Below the pieces are notes generated by a model, which saw only the letters and a list, made by a program, of their open reading frames with translations, searched no databases and was not told the DNA's origin. A DNA stretch of 64,000 nucleotides. Source: Eledone cirrhosa. Its lineage: Eukaryota. The DNA lies in the NCBI GenBank assembly GCA_964016885.1, contig OZ024745.1, positions 74,276,001-74,340,000 on the forward strand, in the 5' to 3' direction. Shown one piece after another: positions 9,441 through 62,149 of this stretch. The position numbers were made by a program, and so were the translations under genes. Every line of letters starts with the position of its first letter. Positions within the stretch are counted from its first letter, which is position 1.

Positions 9441-9536
9441 AGGTACACACATTATATATATATAAAAGTACCAGTAATGTACTGAGTAATTGATGGCCTT
9501 GTGCCAAAAGTAGAAACAATTATATATATATATATA

Positions 9537-10423
9537 CGAGGTGTGTCAGAAAAGTTCCAGGACTGATGTCATAAAAGATTTATTTCAAACCCAAACTTCA
9601 CACTAGGAGTTTTCTCCTTCAAAGTAATCTCCCTGGAGTATGTAACTGTAATCTTAGCTCTCTGCAGCGATCAAACTTTTTTCTTCATAATTTTATATAC
9701 ATGTCCTCTGTTTCAGGTCGTCAAGCAATGAGCACAGAGCAACGAACAAGCTTGAAGTTTCTGGTACTGTTGGGGAAAACTCCGTCAGAAGCACTGGGAT
9801 TGCTGCAGCAAGTGTATGGAGATGAGACGATGTCACGCTCACGTGTTTTTGAGTGGTGCAAGAGGTTTAAAGAAGGACGCGAGCATGTGGAAGATGACCC
9901 CAGGAGCGGAAGACCCTCAACAACCAGGACTGAGGTCAACATTGAGCGCATCACTGTTCGACTGATGGCAAATGAGCTGGGCATAAATCGGGACAGTGTC
10001 TGGAAGATTCTCACTGAAGATTTGGACATGCGGAAAGTCTGCACGAAGATGGTGCCAAAACTGCTGAACGATGACCAGAAGGGTCGACACTTGCAAGTGT
10101 GCCAGGACATTCTCGAGCATCTTGAAACCGAACCAGACTTGCTAGGGACAGTCATCACCGGTGATGAGTCATGGATCTTTGAGTACGACCCGGAGGGGAC
10201 CCGTTTTGAAGACGTGGACGACATCAAAAAGGCCGTGATGACGGAACTGTGGAGGATCCCAGAAGAATCCTTCCAGGAGTGCATGCAACCGTGGCAAAAA
10301 AGGATGGAAAAGTGCATTAGACTCCAGAGGGATTACTTTGAAGGAGAAAACTCTTAGTGTGAAGTTTGCGTTTGAAATAAATCTTTTATGACATCAGTCC
10401 TGGAACTTTTCTGACACACCTCG
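9537..10423 (+). mobile_element. Tc1/mariner superfamily (mariner) transposon, internally deleted, ~103-bp TIRs, TA target-site duplication
   Basis: TA|CGAGGTGTGTCAGAAAAGTTCCAGGACTGATG... at the left end and ...CATCAGTCCTGGAACTTTTCTGACACACCTCG|TA at the right; TIRs 9537-9639 and 10321-10423 differ at about 4 positions. Confidence 0.97.
9701..10357 (+). pseudogene. Mariner transposase with in-frame internal deletions (DNA-binding region kept, catalytic DD34D incomplete)
   Basis: HTH region (LGKTPSEA...VFEWCKRFKEGREHVEDDPRSGRP), linker MVPKLL (WVPHEL-type) and first catalytic Asp in ITGDESW, then a direct jump to GTRFEDVDDIK. The HDNA and YSPDLAPxD motifs are absent. The C-terminus CIRLQRDYFEG is typical of mariner. 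Confidence 0.93.
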
Positions 10424-10459
10424 TAAACATATATATATACACATATATATCATGATAGT

Positions 10460-10671: not shown

Positions 10672-10882
10672 ATATAAAGGTTAAACAAGGTTCAATGAAT
10701 AAATCAAAGAATGAGTTTTACAATGACTGAATCTTAACCATCTACTATGTCAGGGTATGTCATGCATCATCTTCTTTTATCTGATGAGGACGTACTGTTG
10801 AAGTTAACTCAGTACCTCTGAAATATGTATAATAAAATATACTTGATCACAAGAATATCTATTTTGTTAATATTTTGAATTT
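10672..10882 (+). mobile_element. Penelope-like pLTR-type fragment between (TA)n tracts
   Basis: Carries a hammerhead motif; shares upstream AGGGTATGTCA and downstream TTGTTAATAT with the 11.9-kb and 46.5-kb arms. The Penelope assignment is inferred, since no RT or GIY-YIG ORF is seen. Confidence 0.6.
10775..10837 (+). ncRNA. Minimal type-I hammerhead ribozyme motif
   Basis: Stem I UUUUAU/AUAAAA; CUGAUGA 10781-10787; stem II GGACGUACUG/CAGUACCUCU (9 of 10 paired); GAAA 10820-10823; stem III UAUGUA; predicted cleavage after AUA at 10831. Confidence 0.85.
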
Positions 10883-11260: not shown

Positions 11261-11295
<35 letters not shown>

Positions 11296-11337
11296 CAATA
11301 TATTAACAAATGGAAACTATATTTATAAAACCATATT

Positions 11338-11403
11338 TATTTCATTATACATATTTCAAGGGCCACCAAGGTAAACTATGGTGCGTTTTCATCAGATAAA
11401 ATA
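11338..11403 (-). ncRNA. Minimal type-I hammerhead ribozyme motif (left arm)
   Basis: Minus strand: UAUUUUAU CUGAUGA AAACGCACCA UAGUUUACCU UGGUGGCCCUU GAAA UAUGUA UA AUGAAAUA. Core intact, base of stem II weakened. Confidence 0.75.
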
Positions 11404-11438
11404 TAATATAGGTTAGTTTTATAAATAAATATTGACAT

Positions 11439-11759
11439 TGGCCTTGCAATCAAAAGGTTGTGAGTTCAATTCTCAGACCGGGTGATGTGTTGTTTCCTTG
11501 AGCAAGACACTTTATTTCACATTGCTCCAGTTTACTCAGCTGTAGAAATGAGATGATAGGGATTGGGGTCCATATCACTCCACTGCAAAGTGGTCGTGGA
11601 GGTGCCATGGCAAAAAAGCACCCAGCACTCACTGTAAATGAGGTTGGTGTTAGGAAGGGCATCCAGCTGTAGAAATCAAGCCAGAATCAGTTCCCGTCCC
11701 ACTCTTGCAAGCAGGGAAAAAGCGGACGTAAAATGAAATGATGATGAAATTATGATGAT
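11439..11759 (+). mobile_element. Chimeric SINE (family B head/core plus family C tail) inserted in the palindrome arm
   Basis: Splits TATTGACAT|ACCCTTAAA, which is contiguous in the other arms. Contains GAGTTCAATTC, CCTTGAGCAAGACACTT, GGAAGGGCATCCAGC and a GATGATG tail; near-identical partial copy at 25545-25788 (-). Confidence 0.88.
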
Positions 11760-11943
11760 ACCCTTAAAAAAGGCAACCGTTCTGGTTGGAATCTCCTGGA
11801 TAGTGGAGTTATTAGATTTTATTGTTGGTTTATAATAAACCAACAATAAATCTAATAACTCCACTATCCAGGAGATTCCAACCAGAATGGTTGCATTTTT
11901 TTAAGGGTATGTCAATATTTATTTATAAAACTAACCTATATTA

Positions 11944-12009
11944 TATTTTATCTGATGAAAGCACACCATAGTTTACCTTGGTGGCCCTTGAAATATGTAT
12001 AATGAAATA
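11944..12009 (+). ncRNA. Minimal type-I hammerhead ribozyme motif (right arm)
   Basis: Stem I UAUUUUAU/AUGAAAUA; CUGAUGA 11952-11958; stem II AAGCACACCA/UGGUGGCCCUU; GAAA 11990-11993; UAUGUA-UA; predicted cleavage after 12001. Confidence 0.82.
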
Positions 12010-12587
12010 ATATGGTTTTATAAATATAGTTTCCATTTGTTAATATATTGTATATTTATTCCAATAATTTGTTGAGTGCTTTATATCAGTTATAAAAATA
12101 TTTTGCTTGTTGTATCCCAACAAATTAAATATAACCTCTACATATATATATATATATAAATATGCATGCATGTTTATAAATATTGATATATACAGGCTAC
12201 ATCTGAGCTTGTAAGAAGAATATGAACAGAAAGGAAATTTCAGATCATTACAGTTCCAGCAAGGAATTAATGATTGAGCATAGTGTTTAGTATAGAAAAT
12301 GAGGATGGACCAAAATAAAGATGGTATGCAGATACCAAATTCAGAATAGTAGAATCCATTGTCATAATAGATTATAAATATTGATTTATTTCTATTATCC
12401 TCCCTTGGAAGTGTTGCTGGTAGGAAGAACCGTTGTTCTGTGGTGGATTGGAAAGTCTGTCCTGATGTGATGTCATGTAACATCAGGATTTCTTTGACAT
12501 CATCAATTCACTTCTTCCTTGGCTGGTCTCTGGCTTTACAACCAGACATCTTTATGTTATACTTACCATAATGTAATTCTCCTCTTC

Positions 12588-13398: not shown

Positions 13399-15397
13399 AC
13401 CCTGATGTATTCAAAACTAATCATTTATTCATCTCTAATCAATTTCTTTGAAAATATGAAAAGAATAAGTCATTTATTCCATATTACTTAATATTTGTTT
13501 TTCGCTTTTTGATGCTATTATTACATATGTTTATATAAATCTATAATTTCTGTATAACAAATCAGACACCAATTTGCTGATGAAATATTCTGCTGCATAA
13601 AACTCGAGTCACTAGAGAGAATAACTCTGTACCAGTGATTCTAATGTGGAGCACACACAGGGGAACAATTTGAATATTTAAGGGAAGCAATTTGAAAATG
13701 ATGTTAATGAGAACAAACTTCAGGTTTTACCTACTTACTTTTACACCAAGACAACTTTGGTACACATTACTCTTTAGTTACACAAATCTCTCTAGGGCTG
13801 CTACCATGATAAAATGTACTCATTACATTCTGTAAAGTTGTCAACATCAGGAAGCACATCCAGCCTTAGAAATCATGTCAAAAAGAGCAAAGAGAGCTCT
13901 TCAGCCACATCAAGGACATAATATTCTTTGTAATGATAGTGCTATGAAAGAATGCACTCAGTACACTCTGTAAAATTGTTGCTGTTAGGAATGGTGTTCA
14001 GCTATAAAAACCATACCAAAAATAGAACATATTGAGATGTGGTATCCTAACCACTCTAATGGGATACTAGCACCAATAAAATACTGGCCAGTTTTTTTAT
14101 TTTCTAGGAATTTGGTAATGTAAATGTTGATGTAATTGGGGATGTTGGTGAGTGCAATAATTTCTCTGGGCCCTAGCTCCTTTAGATGTATGCTTGTGAG
14201 TTTGTGCTAAAAAAGAATCATTAAGTGTAGCAGCAGTTGTTTAAAAAGAATTATTTTTATCAGTTTTATTTCACTTATTAAAGGAGCTCTTTTGCTTAAT
14301 TTTCATTATGTAATATTTTGTGTGTTTGTACTTTTTTTTTATATTTTACTTTATATGCAAATTTCTTTTCAAATAATTTGCTGAGAGTTTATTCTTTGAA
14401 AGCTGAGCTACAAAATATGAAAAGGTGGTTTATGAAACATACAAAAATATAAAATAAATGAAATAAACTTCTTTGAACTGAGTTAAATGATTGGAAACTT
14501 GGCTTGTTATCAGTTTAAACTTGAAACTAAGTAACATTACAGAGCTGAAGGTTATAGCTATTCACAAAGCATGGAATGATGCCATGGAATCTCTGCAGAG
14601 CTAATGCATTCATTGTCAGCTCTCACTTCAAGAAGACCAGCTGTGTGTATTGCACACAATCTCACACCAATATCTGTGCATTATTAGAAAGAACTGATAT
14701 ATTGTTTTGTATTGTGTGTTTGTGTTATAATTGGCACCCTGTCTCATTAAAATATCCAAGAAAGCTATGATGCAACCTCATAGATGGCCAGCTAAATTCA
14801 CATAGGTGGGAGCTGTAGCAACAATTATATATATGGGCCTCAAAACCTAAGGTCGCGCATACATGTTAAGTGTATGAAATGTTATTTATATTAAATAAGC
14901 TCTCTTGCAATAGATTGAGGATTGTTTTCCTTAACTGTTTACCTATGGATATCCTGCAGTATTGAGTACTTTGGTGCGTTATGGATATACCCTAAGTATT
15001 GAGTACTTTGGTGCGTTATGGTCCACCTGGTTCCTTATCACATTTCCTTCGTTATATATATATATATATATATATATCATCATCATCATCATCATCATCA
15101 TCGTTTAATGTCCATCTTCCATGCTATCCCATATATGTATGTATGTATATGAATGTATATATTTATGTGTGTGTGTTTGTATATATGTATATATATACTT
15201 TATTAAGGCCAAGTTTAAGTTTTCTTACTCTGGTGTTTCTCCTGTGCACTCAGTCATTATTCCAGTGAGTACACAAAGTAACAAATTCTGCCTAAATAAA
15301 GAATATATTTATCTTTATTATCCTATTGAGTACTCATTCTTGTGACCACCAATACAAAGCAAATATCATTTTATGTTCATTTTCCATGCTTGCATGG

Positions 15398-23250: not shown

Positions 23251-24575
23251 TAGATGGAGTTTTTCTTATAATTCAGCTTTATGGTATAACTATAGTAGTG
23301 TGTGTTTGATGGTAGTGATGGTGGTGGTATGCTGTTATTTAGACCCAATTTGGCCCTAATTGAGCAGACCTATATAATCATGAGCATTCTAGCCATGGTC
23401 TTTCTGTCTTTCTTTCAGGAATAATGCATCCATAATTACATTATGTAGTAATATGCCAATGTTCAAGATGGTATGGTGTAGTTTGAGGGAGATTTAGCTG
23501 CTATTTCTAGCAGGTAAAATGACCTCATAGAAGTTTCCTCATTGTTATGTTAATAGTGTTGGTGACAACAGATGTCAAATAACATAGCCTCTTGCAACAA
23601 TATCAAGAAACTGGATTAAACAGATGTTTTAATCACATCAAAGTATATTCTTCTTTTGAAGAATGTTCTGTTTCAGTCATGTGACATTAAGAGTTTAAAT
23701 AAAAACAAGACAAGTAATCCTAAAGTTTTCTTATTTTCAATGTCTGACATCTTTTTTTTTCTGTTTTTTTTTTTCTTAATCTCTTTCTTTTTACAAAATT
23801 CCACTCCAGCTAACTATTTGCATTTATATTCTTTTTTTGTTCTATTTTTGGAAGTCAAGCTGCTTCCTGTAACTGAGAAATCTAATATACTCTATAGTGG
23901 TCCTTTGACCTAACTTTATGGGGTGTGGTTTCAATGTTTCTTAATTTTAATTTTTATAATGTATTACCATCATCATGAGGGTGAGTCTTTTCCTCTCTAT
24001 CTAACCTTTTGTAAGGCTTGATTATCATAGATAAGATGAATTTAGATTCAAGGCTAATGTATCAAAAGCTTTTGACATGTTCTAATGGTTTCTACTAGGT
24101 TGTCTCTCCATGAACTTTCACTTCAAGTTCTGCCACCATACCTTGACTGGGACTAAAATCTAATTGTTAGCCCTAGTTTCTCACCACATATTGGCACAGC
24201 ATATGAGAAAATACCAGCTGCTCATTAAACTCTGCTTCTGCTTATATATATCTATATATATATCTATACAGTGTGAAGGTAAACGCTAGCTGTTAACTTA
24301 ACCTTCCTTTCTATGAGCTATCCTTATCATCTTAACACCAAATATTAAACGTTTGCTTCAATATATTAATAATAATCATGGTATATAATGAAATGAAGTT
24401 TGCATCTCACATCTATGCAGGTTTAGCTGGCTTCCCTCTAGGTTGCCTCTTATAGATGGTTTCTCATGTGTTTTAATGATAGGGAGCATATATATATATA
24501 TATATGTTTGTAAACCGTAAAACGGTGATGATGATGATGATATATATGTTTGTGTTCTCTTTTCTACCTTTTCTA

Positions 24576-25544: not shown

Positions 25545-25788
25545 TCATCATCATCATTTCATTTTACGCCCGCTTTTTCCCTGCTTGCAAGGGTGGGACG
25601 GGAACTGATTCTGGCTTGATTTCTACAGCTGGATGCCCTTCCTAACACCAACCTCATTTACAGTGAGTGCTGGGTGCTTTTTTGCCGTGGCACCTCCACG
25701 ACCACTTTGCAGTGGAATGATAGGGACCCCAGTCCCTATCATCTCATTTCTACAGCTGAGTAAACTAGAGCAATGTGAAATAAAGTGT
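25545..25788 (-). mobile_element. Chimeric SINE (B core plus C tail), 5' truncated
   Basis: Near-identical reverse complement of 11507-11750. Confidence 0.88.
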
Positions 25789-25909
25789 CTATTGTATTTA
25801 TTGCATGTGTCTATTGTATTTATTGCATGTGTTTATTGTATTTATTGCATGTGTCTATTGTATTTATTGCATGTGTCTATTGTATTTATTGCATGTGTTT
25901 ATTGTATTT
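25785..25909. repeat. 22-bp minisatellite (C/T)TATTGTATTTATTGCATGTGT, about 5.5 copies
   Basis: Tandem copies starting at the truncation point of the adjacent SINE. Confidence 0.92.
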
Positions 25910-37460: not shown

Positions 37461-38284
37461 AATATAATCTGACCACATATCCCTTTACCACCAATATAAT
37501 CTAACAACACATCCCTTTACCCACCAATATCATGTAACAACACATCCCTTTACCCACCAATATCATGTAACAACCCATCCCTTTACCCACCAATATAATC
37601 TTACAACCCACCCCTTTACCCACCAATATCATCTAGCAACATATCCCTTTACCCACCAATATAATCTTACAACCCACCCCTTTACCCACCAATATCATGT
37701 AACAACACATCCCTTTACCCACCAATATAATCTAACAACACATCCCTTTACCCACCAATATAATCTAACAACACATCCCTTTACCCACCAATATAATCTT
37801 ACAACCCACCCCTTTACCCACTAATATTATCTGGCCACATATCCCTTTACCCACCAATATAATCTAGCAACCCACCCCTTTACCTACCAATATAATCTGA
37901 CCACACATCCCTTTACCCACCAATATAATCTGGCCCCACAATCCTTTACCCACCAATATAATCTGGCCACCCATCTCTTTACCCACAAATATAATCTGAC
38001 CACACATTCCTTTACCCACCAATATAATCTAGCAACCCACCCCTTTACCTACCAATATAATCTTACAACCCATCCCTTTACCCACCAATATAATCTTACA
38101 ACCCATCCCTTTACCCACCAATATCATCTCGCAACATATCCCTTTACCCACCAATATAATCTGGCCACATATCCCTTTACCCACCAATATAATCTTACAA
38201 CCCACCCCTTTACCCACCAATATAATCTAGCAACATATCCCTTTACCCACCAATATAATCTGACCACACATCCCTTTACCCACA
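37461..38284. repeat. 33-bp minisatellite, 25 copies (AATATAATCTNNCAACNCATCCCTTTACCCACC)
   Basis: Counted unit by unit; constant 33-bp period except a 32-bp first unit. Confidence 0.97.
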
Positions 38285-38346
38285 AATTATGTACAATTGT
38301 TATATGATCTGAGTTTTAGTAGTAAAAAAAAATTTATAATTTTCCT

Positions 38347-44272: not shown

Positions 44273-44485
44273 TATTGTAGTCCTAGATACACCATCGACT
44301 TGCTAAGAATAGCTGCCAATTTGTATGGTGGGATTTAAGGGAGATTTGGCAACTATTCTTAGCAAGTCAATGGTGTATCTCGGACTACAATATTCAATTT
44401 GTATGATGTGACTCGAGGGAGTATCTAAGTCTTAGATATACCACACTAGGTTAGACATTACTAAAATGTCTTCCATTATAGCTAG

Positions 44486-45545: not shown

Positions 45546-45549
<4 letters not shown>

Positions 45550-46664
45550 GAAGTTCTATTTAAATTGTTGGGATACAAGAAGCAAATATTTTTATAACTG
45601 ATATAAAGCACTCAACAAATTATTGGAGTAAAAATACGATATATTAACAAATGGAAACTATATTTATAAAACCATATTTATTTCATTATACATATTTCAA
45701 GGACATCAAGTTAAATTATGGTGTGCTTTCATAAAATATAATATAGATCAGTTTTATAAATAAATATTGACATACCCTTAAAGAATGCGACCATTTCAGT
45801 TGGAAGCTCCCGGATAGTGGGGTTATAAATTTATTTATACTATTATGCAAATTAGTGTCGGATATTTTAAAATCACAGTAGATTTAAAATAAGGGGTATG
45901 GAGAAAGGGAAAGAGAAAAAAAGAAAAAAGAGAAAAAAGCAAACTTTAAGAGGAAAATAAGAAAACAAGAATGTGTAGGTATTTATATATATATATATTT
46001 ATATGTATATGTATATATATGAATATATTCTTTTAATAATATATGGGTTTTAATAATATATAGATTTTTTAATAATATATAGATCTCAACTTTTAATGTA
46101 TAGATCTCAATAATTTAATTGATAATTTAATTGATAAACTAAACATTTAATCATATTTAAACACTGGTTAAAATTCATTTTCCACTCACGCTTATTTTCC
46201 ATTCACGCTTATTTAATTTACTCATCCAAAAAATATTTATTTTTTCACTTCATCTTAAAAGTTATGCTAATACAACAACCTATCACTTAGGACTTTCTCT
46301 TTCTCTTTCCTCTTTTCTTTTCTTTCCCTTTTTCTTGTTTTCTTATTTTCCTCTTAAAGTTTGCTTTTTTTCTCTTTTTTCTTTTTTTCTCTTTCCCTTT
46401 CTCCATACCCCAACGGCTTATTTTAAATCTACTGTGATTTTAAAATATCCGACACTAATTTGCATAATAGTATAAATAAATTTATAACCCCACTATCCGG
46501 GAGCTTCCAACTGAAATGGTCGCATTCTTTAAGGGTATGTCAATATTTATTTATAAAACTGATCTATATTATATTTTATCTGATGAAAGCACACCATAAT
46601 TTAACTTGGGTGTCCTTGTAATATGTATAATGAAATAAATATGGTTTTCATTTGTTAATATATC

Positions 46665-46668
<4 letters not shown>
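45546..46668. mobile_element. Second fold-back hammerhead-bearing element (Penelope-pLTR-like)
   Basis: Left arm 45546-45971 and right arm 46332-46668 are reverse complements around a ~360-bp AT-rich spacer. Homologous to 11291-12141 and flanked by (TA)n. Confidence 0.9.
46572..46637 (+). ncRNA. Hammerhead motif with core mutation (GAAA to GUAA)
   Basis: UAUUUUAU CUGAUGA AAGCACACCA...GGGUGUCCUU GUAA UAUGUA UA AUGAAAUA. The mirror copy at 45679-45739 keeps GAAA but lost 5 nt that break CUGAUGA. Confidence 0.7.
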
Positions 46669-57005: not shown

Positions 57006-57509
57006 ACCTCTCTCACACTCTCACCCTCTCACCCTCTCTCTCACTCACTCACCCTCTCTTTCACTCACCCACTCTCTCTCTCTCTCTCACTCACCCACTC
57101 TCTGTGTTTCTACATCATAGGTCCTAGAAGCCTACAAAAATCATGCACACCCCCTCCTCTAACTACTTTATATCAAAAAAGGTGAGGTGACCATATTGAA
57201 ATGTTACTATAAAAACAAACTCCAAACAGTGACTAGTTAAGAAGTGTGGCTCACTGCATGCATGTTCATTCATAACACAAAACATCAACACTTCACATGA
57301 AGCCTATAACTATTATTATAAAGAAAAAAACTTTTCATTGAAATGTCAACAGAGAAACGCCTAGTTGCTTCAAAATTTCAAATAATAGCTGTAATAACTG
57401 TCAACTATAGTATGTGTGAGTGCATACATAATGTGTAATACATATATAACATACTGTGCACATTTGTAATGTATATATATATATGTTTGTGTGTGTAGTA
57501 TATATATAT

Positions 57510-57770
57510 GTTTCATACACTTAATATGTATGTGCGACCATTGGTTTTGGAGTCCAGTTATGGCTACCAATGTATATTGGAATATTGGAGGAGGCTCTTC
57601 CAAGCTGACCCCCTCATCAAGCACAAGGACAAATAGGAACTTCCTTTTTTGTATATTTGACCCCATGCCAGATGATAGGTGAATTTAGAAGAACCTCCTC
57701 CAATATACAGTGGTGGCCTTAACTGGACCCCAAAACCAATGGTCACACGTACATATTAAGTGTATGAAAC
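57510..57770. mobile_element. Short fold-back element in a (TA)n tract
   Basis: Arms 57510-57603 and 57685-57770 are imperfect reverse complements; a related single arm lies at about 14836-14880. Confidence 0.75.
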
Positions 57771-57818
57771 TTTATACTATATATATATATATATATAAGC
57801 CTCTGGAGTTTCATGCCC

Positions 57819-59485: not shown

Positions 59486-60045
59486 CTAATTGCAGGAAAA
59501 AAAACTGTAATAACTATTCCAGCAGGACCTGTCAGAAGCAGCTATTTCCAACTGATCTGGCTGGATCCCCAAGCAAGACCAGCCAAGCTCATGGATGTTA
59601 TCCAACCATGTTGCTTGGGGTCTACCCCTGGGTCTCCTGCTGGTTTGTTTTGCCTCTAAAATCTGTCCAGCGATTCTTTCCTGGGACATTCTAAACACAT
59701 GCCCATAGTATCGGAGCTATGATCTCTCAATTTCGAGAAGTAGTGGCTCTACCTTGAGCAACTCTATGATCTCCAAGCTCTGCTCTCTATCAATTAATGT
59801 TACTCCAAACACCCTTTGGAGGAACCCCATTTCGGTTGCTTGTATTCGCGATTGTATTCTTTCGATCATTACCCAAGACTCATGACCATAGGTAAGGGTT
59901 AGCATTAATACTGAATTGAATATAGCGAGTTTGACTTTTACACCTACCTCCCTTCTTCTGATTACTAAATGCTGAAGCTGGCAAATTACTGCACCAGCTC
60001 CTGTAATTCTTGCACTTAATTCAGCCTCCTTTCTTCCATCATGAT
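59486..60045 (-). mobile_element. RTE-clade LINE, 3' part of RT ORF, decayed
   Basis: LTYGHESWVMIERIQSRIQATEMGFLQRVFGVT...VEPLLLEIERS*LRYYGHVFRMSQER...RRPRGRPQATWLDNI...DRSCW, the typical RTE C-terminal region, with a premature stop. Confidence 0.92.
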
Positions 60046-62149
60046 GTAGATAATTCTACATCCAAATATTTTCATGTATTATTGGAACAGTATTCTATCC
60101 CTAACCCAAACAACTCAACCTGTTTTCAATAGATGTGTTATCTGATTCTAACTAGATTGACTGAGAAAAATCAAAGAATGTGCTTTATCTAAGAATAGTA
60201 TCATAAATGATTGATTGAACCTGTTTTCTTTTTACATAGAATTTATGTCCAAACCAAACAGTGTTTAACTATCCTCTGTTTATTGTTATAACTACTTTTT
60301 CACTCTGTTGTCAATGTTCCCAAGTTCTATAGAGCAATTAAATTATAGCCCAATTATTACATATTGTTGAGTTGATATGTGCACTGTTTGATGCATACCC
60401 CTCCCACAATTGTAAGAACCTATTTCTCAATCTCATAACCTATCCACTGGGCTATATCAATGATATACAACTTACTAAATTAGCTTTTATTTTGAAAAGT
60501 TCTTCATGACCTTTGTACATTAATAGAGAGTATTGTATAATCAATATAATGATTCTTGTTCAATAAACTTAAGTTCTTGGACAAAGAAAAATAAAGAACT
60601 TCTAAGAAATTGTGATATCAGAAATATCTGATATCACAATGACACCTAAATATGAAACTGTCCACATGTCTACGTGGAAGCCATCACTGACTATTTAAAG
60701 GAATCCTGTTTTTAACAGTGGCTGTTTAAGCCCACCAGACATGTTTTTTGCAGGCCTTACAAGCAAAACTATATATGTACACATCAGTATGCAAAAGTGT
60801 AGTCTAATATAAAGCACTGTGTCTTTTTAATCCATCGATATATTTGTAGAACTTCCCACAATATTACACAATTGCCATGAACTTACTCTAGCCAGTCTTA
60901 AAAAGACATGATTGCAAATCTCACAGTTAAACAAACCTATCTACTACTTTCATTTCTGTTCCTTCAACTAAGCTAGATAATTTCAGGCAGGTTTCTGGGA
61001 GCAAAGTGGAACATTGCTAATTCTGAGTTCAAATAACTTACAAGATGCAGAAATATAATCCATAAGAATGTGCATATCTTCAGCAGTATCTGCATAAAGA
61101 CCTAAAAAATTGAAAGGCTTTCAAATTGAAAATACACGTTGACATTGACCAATGCTTCTATTTCACCATGAAATAATTTAATTATTGACATAAAGTGATT
61201 TAAACATACGCACATATTGTATGCACATGCATACATATATGTTGAATTGAACCCAGAACCATGTGGTTGCAAAGCAAACTTCTTAACCATGCCTGTACGT
61301 ATGTGCCCTATGTTTTAAGACAGTAAGTTGTGATTTAGCAATTTCCTCGGGTAATGAAAACAGAAAATAATAATTATAGTGGCATAAGAGGTAATGTTTA
61401 GGAAGCAATCAATATTTTCACAAGAACTTTTAAGTGAGATTCATAATGCATGACTTAAATTGAACCCATGTTGTCATAATATTGTTTTTAGCATCCTTTA
61501 CATTGTAGAAATTCTCACCATTGTGTCTCCACTACAAAATTATTAATGAACTAATATTTGTCAGAATTCCAGTGTATTGTAAAACTCTATTCAGATAATA
61601 CAATGAACAGTGATTAAGATATGATAGATACTAAAAGGCAGTAGGCAAGGCCACAATCATCAGTTATTGAACTGGACATCAAATGATAAATGTTAGGATT
61701 GTATACTAGCATAAGCTTGTCTATGACCAAATACTGTAAATACTTAAATAAATTGAGTCTTTTCTATTTAAAATGTATTCAAAACTTAAAAAATTAACTT
61801 ATGTATCAAGTCAGTTATAAAGAAACAACAAATGTCTATATGAGCAATATCAAAATTTTATCAAAAATTGCTGTATTTCATTATTAATTTCATTTCACAT
61901 TTCCATCAAGGTCATAATCTAATGGTATTAAAAAATTAAACACATATTATGAAATACAAAAGAAATACTGGTAAGTGTTTTTTATTGATGACATTTTGAT
62001 AGCATCAATTTCTATGTCAGAGCATGCTAATAAACTACAAGTAATGCCAATATTGAAAACCAATGGGCTTACACTTAATAGAGAAAAATATAAATTGATT
62101 CTCTAAGTATCATGTCTCTGAACAGACATGCCATGTTATTACACATAAT

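Follow-up and report, generated by a model that had tools for sequence, protein, structure and literature searches.

Structure of the palindromic element

The window analysed here is a 64,000-nt stretch of Eledone cirrhosa contig OZ024745.1, and all positions are counted from its first letter. At 11291–12141, it holds an element in which two copies of the same sequence meet head to head (Table 1). The best inverted match within these limits scored 251 bits, against a maximum of 37.4 bits in 50 dinucleotide shuffles, and the palindrome is centred on the single base 11834. With an insert in the left arm removed, the arms are 222 nt (left) and 221 nt (right) long and align with 216 matches, four substitutions, and three one-base gaps. 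Both ends of the element abut (TA)n, a microsatellite target in which no duplication is visible. A near-perfect palindrome with a 1-nt centre, inserted in (TA)n, had been described in the first-pass annotation, and both points are borne out. Its figure of about 220 bp per arm likewise agrees with the measured lengths, but the break in the left arm and an 82–86 nt tail, found on the right arm only and with no partner on the left, went unmentioned. Its numbers agree with the element as it stood before the SINE-like insertion; without the insert, the element is 530 nt long.

Table 1. Features of the palindromic element and positions of the other family copies in the window.
Feature	Position	Strand	Remarks
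Solo copy, related subfamily	10677..10881	+	68% over 117 columns, E 6e-11
(TA)n target tract, left flank	11271..11290	.	Arm boundary ambiguous by a few bases
Outer part of inverted tail-less arm	11291..11438	-	97% match to 11909-12059
Type I hammerhead, left arm	11338..11403	-	Core 11395-11389; predicted cut after 11346
SINE-like repeat in left arm, 321 nt	11439..11759	+	97% identical over 243 nt to 25548-25790
Inner part of inverted arm	11760..11833	-	Inverted match to right arm
Head-to-head junction centre, 1 nt	11834..11834	.	
Right arm: 5'-truncated 3' end, pLTR-like, non-coding	11835..12055	+	About 91% identical to 46475-46668
Type I hammerhead, right arm	11944..12009	+	Core 11952-11958; predicted cut after 12001
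Tail, one end only, 82-86 nt	12056..12141	+	
(TA)n target tract, right flank	12142..12157	.	
Second family copy, inverted pair	45549..46668	.	Tailed arm 45549-45971 (-), tail-less arm 46332-46668 (+)

The longest stop-free frame in the right arm is 47 codons. The outer part of the left arm terminates at what we refer to as the short 3' end of the family, an end also seen in the tail-less arm of the second copy and among the loose ends of matches in sequencing runs. The insert splits the left arm, so that contiguous pairing around the centre covers only 74 bp per side and about 560 nt separate the hammerhead core from its pairing partner.

The insert itself is a dispersed repeat, portions of which recur many times within the window. 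It has a short tandem 3' end and overlaps its target by at most 2 nt, and its head carries what we take to be a B-box-like motif; this motif and the tandem 3' end are our basis for calling it SINE-like. A search with an A-box pattern gave matches at chance level in the window, none of them in the insert. The repeat likely entered the left arm later than the element itself arrived. The copy at 25548–25790 is 5'-truncated against a short tandem repeat.

Other copies of the family in the window

A profile search of the window returned five hits, corresponding to the two arms described above, a second pair at 45.5–46.7 kb, and a single arm at 10.7–10.9 kb, which gives a count for these 64 kb of two inverted pairs and one solo copy. 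The second pair shares both of its outer ends with the 11291–12141 element, differs from it by 8–9%, and shows two substitutions in 320 positions between its own arms. These arms are parted by a 360-nt spacer that opens with a (TA)-rich stretch and has no other match within the window, bringing the whole copy to 1120 nt. A pyrimidine-rich tract of the tail-less arm continues into the spacer and stops abruptly on the tailed side; in this one copy, whose spacer is of unproven origin, the tail-less arm would thus seem the longer of the two. Both hammerheads of this pair are broken, one missing five core bases and the other carrying an altered GAAA.

The solo copy sits between (TA)n tracts and terminates at the short end. 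Its hammerhead motif is intact, with the core at 10781, and among the five arms it has the best-formed helix II. The three loci reach inward to differing extents, indicating variable 5' truncation, and no full-length copy of the family, which if active would be expected to show a partial tandem of direct pLTRs, lies within the window.

Hammerhead ribozyme motifs

The two hammerhead motifs of the element, at 11952–12001 on the forward strand and 11395–11346 on the reverse strand, face outward as had been claimed, and the pattern used to locate them occurs three times in the window and in none of 100 shuffles. In the right arm, helix I comprises 8 bp and the GAAA lies at 11990–11993, while helix III (11993–12000) is a self-complementary octamer that closes only about two pairs intramolecularly. 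Helix II contains a C.C mismatch across the family. It covaries: six of its nine pairs are changed on both sides, a count reached by none of 500 shuffles, with the reservation that the alignment has five related rows (two arms here, two from the second pair, and one from the solo copy) and that the solo copy contributes most of the signal. At its base, helix II is closed by A-U or G-U, a pair weakened in both arms of this locus, and a G-C at this place has been called highly conserved (PMC4209133). The element carries a type I hammerhead motif near its 3' end on the sense strand, as Penelope-like elements do.

No Rfam family matched at its gathering score, and no hammerhead model was among the 68 matches up to E 10, most of which were microRNA models fitting the hairpin or simple repeats, and were set aside. 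The central hairpin of the palindrome (11790–11877) scored 51.0 bits against the mir-7 model (cut-off 51.8), so that a transposon palindrome nearly produced a false microRNA call.

Probable assignment to the Penelope-like elements

We assign the element with high confidence to the Penelope-like group, as a truncated insertion with an inverted copy of itself. This is the origin first proposed for it, and it is supported by the published layout and by the ribozyme type. In endonuclease-bearing (EN+) Penelope-like elements, an inverted 5'-truncated copy lies at the 5' end, a 30–40 bp tail is found at one end, and insertion is biased towards (TA)n (PMC8557442). The two inverted pairs in the window each have such a copy at the 5' end, as well as a tail at one end only, giving two kinds of 3' end. 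Together with the junction palindrome and the hammerhead near the 3' end, the head-to-head layout and the one-sided tail match the descriptions of EN+ insertions (PMC8557442, PMC3846280); the element departs from them in its 82–86 nt tail, its lack of coding sequence, and its SINE-split left arm. Neither a reverse transcriptase (RT) nor a GIY-YIG domain (Pfam) was found in 232 stop-to-stop frames of the window, namely 231 of at least 55 a.a. that passed a complexity filter (shorter and low-complexity frames being excluded) and one that was added, and truncated copies would be expected to lack such frames. As no such protein was found, membership is argued from layout and ribozyme type. Exact-pattern scans for the family in metagenome contigs, prokaryote genomes, and viral contigs returned nothing.

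Within the group, the Hydra clade (Penelope-13_HM and Hydra-1_Obim) has in common with our family a (TA)n target and a 3' hammerhead (PMC8557442). Penelope-13_HM, a (TA)n element, also carries an inverted truncated copy, and its hammerhead is listed on both strands (PMC8557442, supplement). The Hydra-clade hammerheads listed there, however, have hairpin helices III of 3–4 bp and sequences unlike those found here, and an exact search of the supplement with four short family motifs gave no match, although line breaks can hide matches in such a text (PMC8557442). Neptune elements share a microsatellite bias (PMC8557442). Across Hydra and Neptune, only the (TA)n preference is shared with our family, and assignment to a clade would require the protein. 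Naiads were dismissed as candidates, since a hammerhead with a covarying helix II is present here and Naiads are reported to lack a canonical one (PMC8557442).

The hammerheads resemble the metazoan minimal type I motifs with a palindromic helix III in their topology, their long helix II, and a self-complementary helix III suited to dimers, and they differ in their helix II, with A-U or G-U at its base in place of G-C and a C.C mismatch, and in a 12-nt loop (PMC4209133). Pairs of such hammerheads lying 100–700 bp apart on opposite strands have been described in Schistosoma (PMC4209133). The non-LTR retrozymes are similarly non-coding, carry a type I hammerhead, and are related to Penelope pLTRs, but they are arranged as head-to-tail tandems in which a single strand carries two hammerheads, whereas the copies here are head to head or solo (bioRxiv 10.64898/2026.07.22.740005). 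We therefore rejected this assignment, as the five profile hits in the window form two opposite-strand pairs and one solo copy, with no same-strand tandem.

The closest biochemical parallel is Poseidon_Ac (PAc) of Anolis, whose purified protein, a predicted dimer, cuts both DNA strands, extends each of them, and initiates at two sites flanking the tail (PMC11167929). As in our family, two 3' ends bound the tail and the target is AT-rich, and extension of both strands in PAc would yield two arms (PMC11167929). In PAc, the hammerhead contains the start of the reading frame, which also takes in the tail (PMC11167929), whereas no frame begins in the hammerhead of our element.

Abundance of the family in sequencing runs

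Four of 23 listed runs (X1, X4, X21, and X5) were aligned on positions 11720–12320 only, at 82% likeness. No RNA run was among those listed for the sequence, which says nothing about expression. Matches numbered 5720 contigs in X1, 531 in X4, 24,891 reads in X21, and 52 contigs in X5, which is from another organism; the family is very abundant. Summed contig depth in X1, which does not represent copy number, was 969,082 at 11951–11971, 1,017 at 11825–11845, and 5.5 in the flank. In X21, read counts fell inward from 1799 at 11909–11929 to 116 at 11846–11866, 22 at 11825–11845, and 1 at 11804–11824. Such a steep inward drop is typical of 5' truncation, and subfamilies that have diverged upstream may be a partial cause of it. 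At the short end, loose ends of matches continue as (TA)n in 77 contigs of X1, in 5172 reads of X21, and also in X5. Eight of the 15 joints listed switch strand, at eight different pairs of places, with the provisos that eight further joints and 373 loose ends lie outside the listing, that a centre identical to 11834 would not register as a joint and that RAD libraries can create chimeras.

Two letters set this element apart from most of its family. Position 11935 is C on both arms and T in 87% of X1 contig depth and in 1594 of 1774 X21 reads, and position 11971 is G on both arms and A in 91% of X1. The sharing of these family-rare letters indicates that both arms derive from one source. Separately, we noted in X21 (at 11986–12097) a very abundant sister subfamily that matches from about 11990 onward; judged from loose ends, its helix II differs and its helix III is perfectly self-complementary.

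Origin of the inverted arm

We interpret the locus as a dead, heavily 5'-truncated, hammerhead-bearing Penelope-like insertion in which two 3' ends, one of them tailed, lie head to head in (TA)n, and assign this reading a probability of roughly 0.75. That the two arms arose from two primers, the route we favour, rather than from the folding back of a single product, we place at about even odds. In a two-primer route, the RT-endonuclease of an unseen autonomous relative would cut both (TA)n strands, and each DNA end would prime reverse transcription from a common RNA template, at the tail end (12141) for one arm and at the short end (12055) for the other, so that the two arms would differ by the tail. 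Both ends recur in the second pair, and the short end recurs in the runs, which supports this step. Both cDNAs would then stop early and join head to head, the site of joining setting the centre, in keeping with centres that differ between copies (1 nt here versus 360 nt in the second pair). Head-to-head identical strands could anneal only at inverted microhomologies, so a single self-complementary site would leave no spacer and two separate sites would leave one. The SINE-like repeat would have inserted into the left arm after this. Two observations count against this explanation of the locus. The tail, at 82–86 nt, is more than twice the published 30–40 nt, and chance would seldom halt two independent cDNAs at one and the same base, so that the 1-nt centre equally fits fold-back or the later loss of a spacer.

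Fold-back is possible, if less probable, and would require a cDNA (or an antisense template) to have snapped back at the AT-rich hairpin 11827–11841 and been copied outward to the short end. A 1-nt centre and rare letters shared by both arms are expected of such a hairpin intermediate, and the palindromes at head-to-head junctions of known elements have been read as self-priming (PMC3846280). Starting from a tailed arm, however, a simple fold-back cannot give a tail-less arm that is the longer, as seems to be the case in the second pair, an objection that draws on one copy whose spacer is of unproven origin. We consider it rather unlikely that a later loss of spacer, by deletion or template switching, perfected the palindrome: the second copy's upstream region does not match the 10 nt on either side of the centre, and the arms had time to acquire four substitutions, three gaps, and the SINE-like insert, but no direct sign of such a loss was seen. 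Long palindromes are, moreover, generally thought to gain, not lose, central asymmetry.

The first-pass annotation had favoured a non-autonomous, spacer-less fold-back retro-element that moves as a palindrome and keeps its antisense arm to silence its ribozyme. The predicted masking is indeed complete on both strands (see below), and inverted pairs make up two of the three hammerhead-bearing insertions in the window. As a type for the whole family, this does not hold, given the 360-nt spacer of the second copy, the existence of a solo relative, and the strand-switch joints, those listed lying at other places, and we regard it as improbable for the locus as well. Centres differ between copies, X21 depth at 11804–11824 is about 1/100 of that at 11846–11866, and both hammerheads of the second pair are broken; hammerheads of this kind are near-inactive as monomers (PMC4209133), and the hammerhead is dispensable for insertion in vitro (PMC11167929). 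It is less probable still that the element is a DNA transposon of MITE-like kind, flanked by long terminal inverted repeats in a TA target and carrying the hammerhead as a passenger. The inverted arms, the TA flanks, and the similar outer ends of the two copies are what such a transposon would present, but the ends are unequal (the tail being one-sided), the lengths disagree (530 nt without the insert versus 1120 nt in the second copy), one arm occurs solo, depth falls steeply inward, and a covarying hammerhead lies in the sense of each arm. An artefact of assembly or of library fold-back is the least probable of all: no listed read or contig of X1, X4, X21, or X5 crosses the centre at 11834, yet the arms differ by four substitutions, three gaps, a 321-nt insert, and a one-sided tail, the same layout occurs at a second, independent locus, and the right flank of the element is present in X1 with one difference.

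Taken alone, the locus is of little significance, as another truncated Penelope-type insertion. The family to which it belongs, being abundant and having two sharp 3' ends and variable centres, is material for testing the origin of inverted pLTRs, and a genome-wide census of spacers relative to arms could decide between the two-primer and fold-back models.

Predicted masking of the ribozyme by the antisense arm

A read-through transcript of the whole element is predicted to fold with about −433 kcal/mol on the forward strand and −418 kcal/mol on the reverse strand, with the insert looped out. On either strand, every core base is predicted to pair with the other arm (unpaired probability ≤0.003). 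As a matter of fold prediction, this agrees with the earlier claim that transcription from either side would trap the ribozyme in a long hairpin. The further claim that only transcripts starting near the centre would self-cleave fares less well on two counts. Any forward transcript starting between about 11400 and 11950 would escape the antisense arm, and a lone arm would itself be expected to cleave poorly, because its helix III consists of a short self-complementary octamer, as in dimer-type motifs (PMC4209133). Nor is the hammerhead fold reached by a lone arm in folding models, which give a probability of 1e-4 to 1e-7 for the active monomer fold, values that carry little weight as they come without a positive control. 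A transcript initiated by Pol III within the insert was also considered as an unmasked source and rejected, since T runs at 11817–11820 and 11896–11902 precede the hammerhead and would likely terminate it.

Published data are consistent with low activity: a single minimal motif showed no cleavage and dimers showed low cleavage (PMC4209133), and in PAc, the one Penelope-like element to have been reconstituted, the hammerhead did not cleave without protein, its mutants having no effect on insertion (PMC11167929). The motifs of an inverted pair lie on opposite strands, so that no dimer can form within one RNA and little activity is left to silence. For the built-in silencing that had been proposed, we found nothing that shows selection, the hammerhead mutants cited above spare insertion (PMC11167929), and the inverted arm varies between copies. 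It is thus very likely that masking is a by-product of a known layout and not a built-in switch. A survey of titles and the openings of abstracts, with most subscription papers outside its scope, turned up no report that Penelope hammerheads are masked by an antisense arm or by the tail.

If the element is transcribed, the more likely fate of its duplex, by analogy, would be siRNA production, as siRNAs match the inverted regions of rearranged Penelope copies (PMC3681739). As the last step of the two-primer scheme above, any read-through RNA is predicted to form a long duplex that buries the hammerhead, and such a duplex would be more likely to undergo small-RNA silencing or editing than to act as a regulated ribozyme.

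Predicted pairing between the tail and the hammerhead core

A further pairing was noted within the tailed arm. A segment of the tail (12076–12101) shows partial complementarity to the hammerhead's 5' half, covering helix I, the core, and the start of helix II, and single-arm RNAs that include the tail are predicted to fold with the core paired to it. The duplex of the hammerhead 5' half and the tail is estimated at −17.7 kcal/mol, a value equalled by three of 1000 shuffled tails and by 30 of 2854 other windows, the tail region having been picked after the fold was seen. The tail is also colinear with the reverse complement of the hammerhead, which seven of 2000 shuffles do as well. When the whole hammerhead is set against the tail, 80 of 1000 shuffles match it, and the whole 3' end folds no better than shuffles (z −1.2); GC content is 24%. 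No covariation was seen for the tail–core pairing. Both tailed copies are identical over 24 nt of the pairing region, which is unremarkable as they are diverged by 6–8%; depth in X1 and X4 peaks at 12077–12097.

These observations bring up the doubtful but conceivable idea, resting on folding models, that the long tail is a built-in anti-ribozyme, which would shut the hammerhead in tailed transcripts until the element's protein, binding the tail for reverse transcription, freed it. If this were true, the pairing would explain in structural terms why Penelope hammerheads are protein-assisted and would offer a testable cause of the poor stand-alone activity of these motifs, and the tail would represent an old, fixed fold-back of the hammerhead module. 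The stretch between the hammerhead and the short end was also tried as a conserved blocker of helix I and rejected, 425 of 1000 shuffles equalling it for the right arm and 61 of 1000 for the solo copy.

Other repeats in the window

Two further palindromes in the window have no hammerhead core. One (57499–57785) lies in (TA)n and has arms about 73% alike, with ends that match 14834–14885, and the other (44273–44392) is an imperfect palindrome of 120 nt, part of which matches 23471–23518. A Tc1/mariner-like element at 9521–10439 has 119-nt inverted matches (95%, TA flanks included) and a 260-codon transposase frame that is apparently internally deleted, with a Mos1-type HTH above the Pfam cut-off. 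On the reverse strand at 59717–60055, a 112-codon frame without a Pfam match resembles the C-terminal end of an RTE-type LINE protein. Finally, a minisatellite with a unit of about 33 nt at 37468–38307 reads as long His/Thr-rich open frames.
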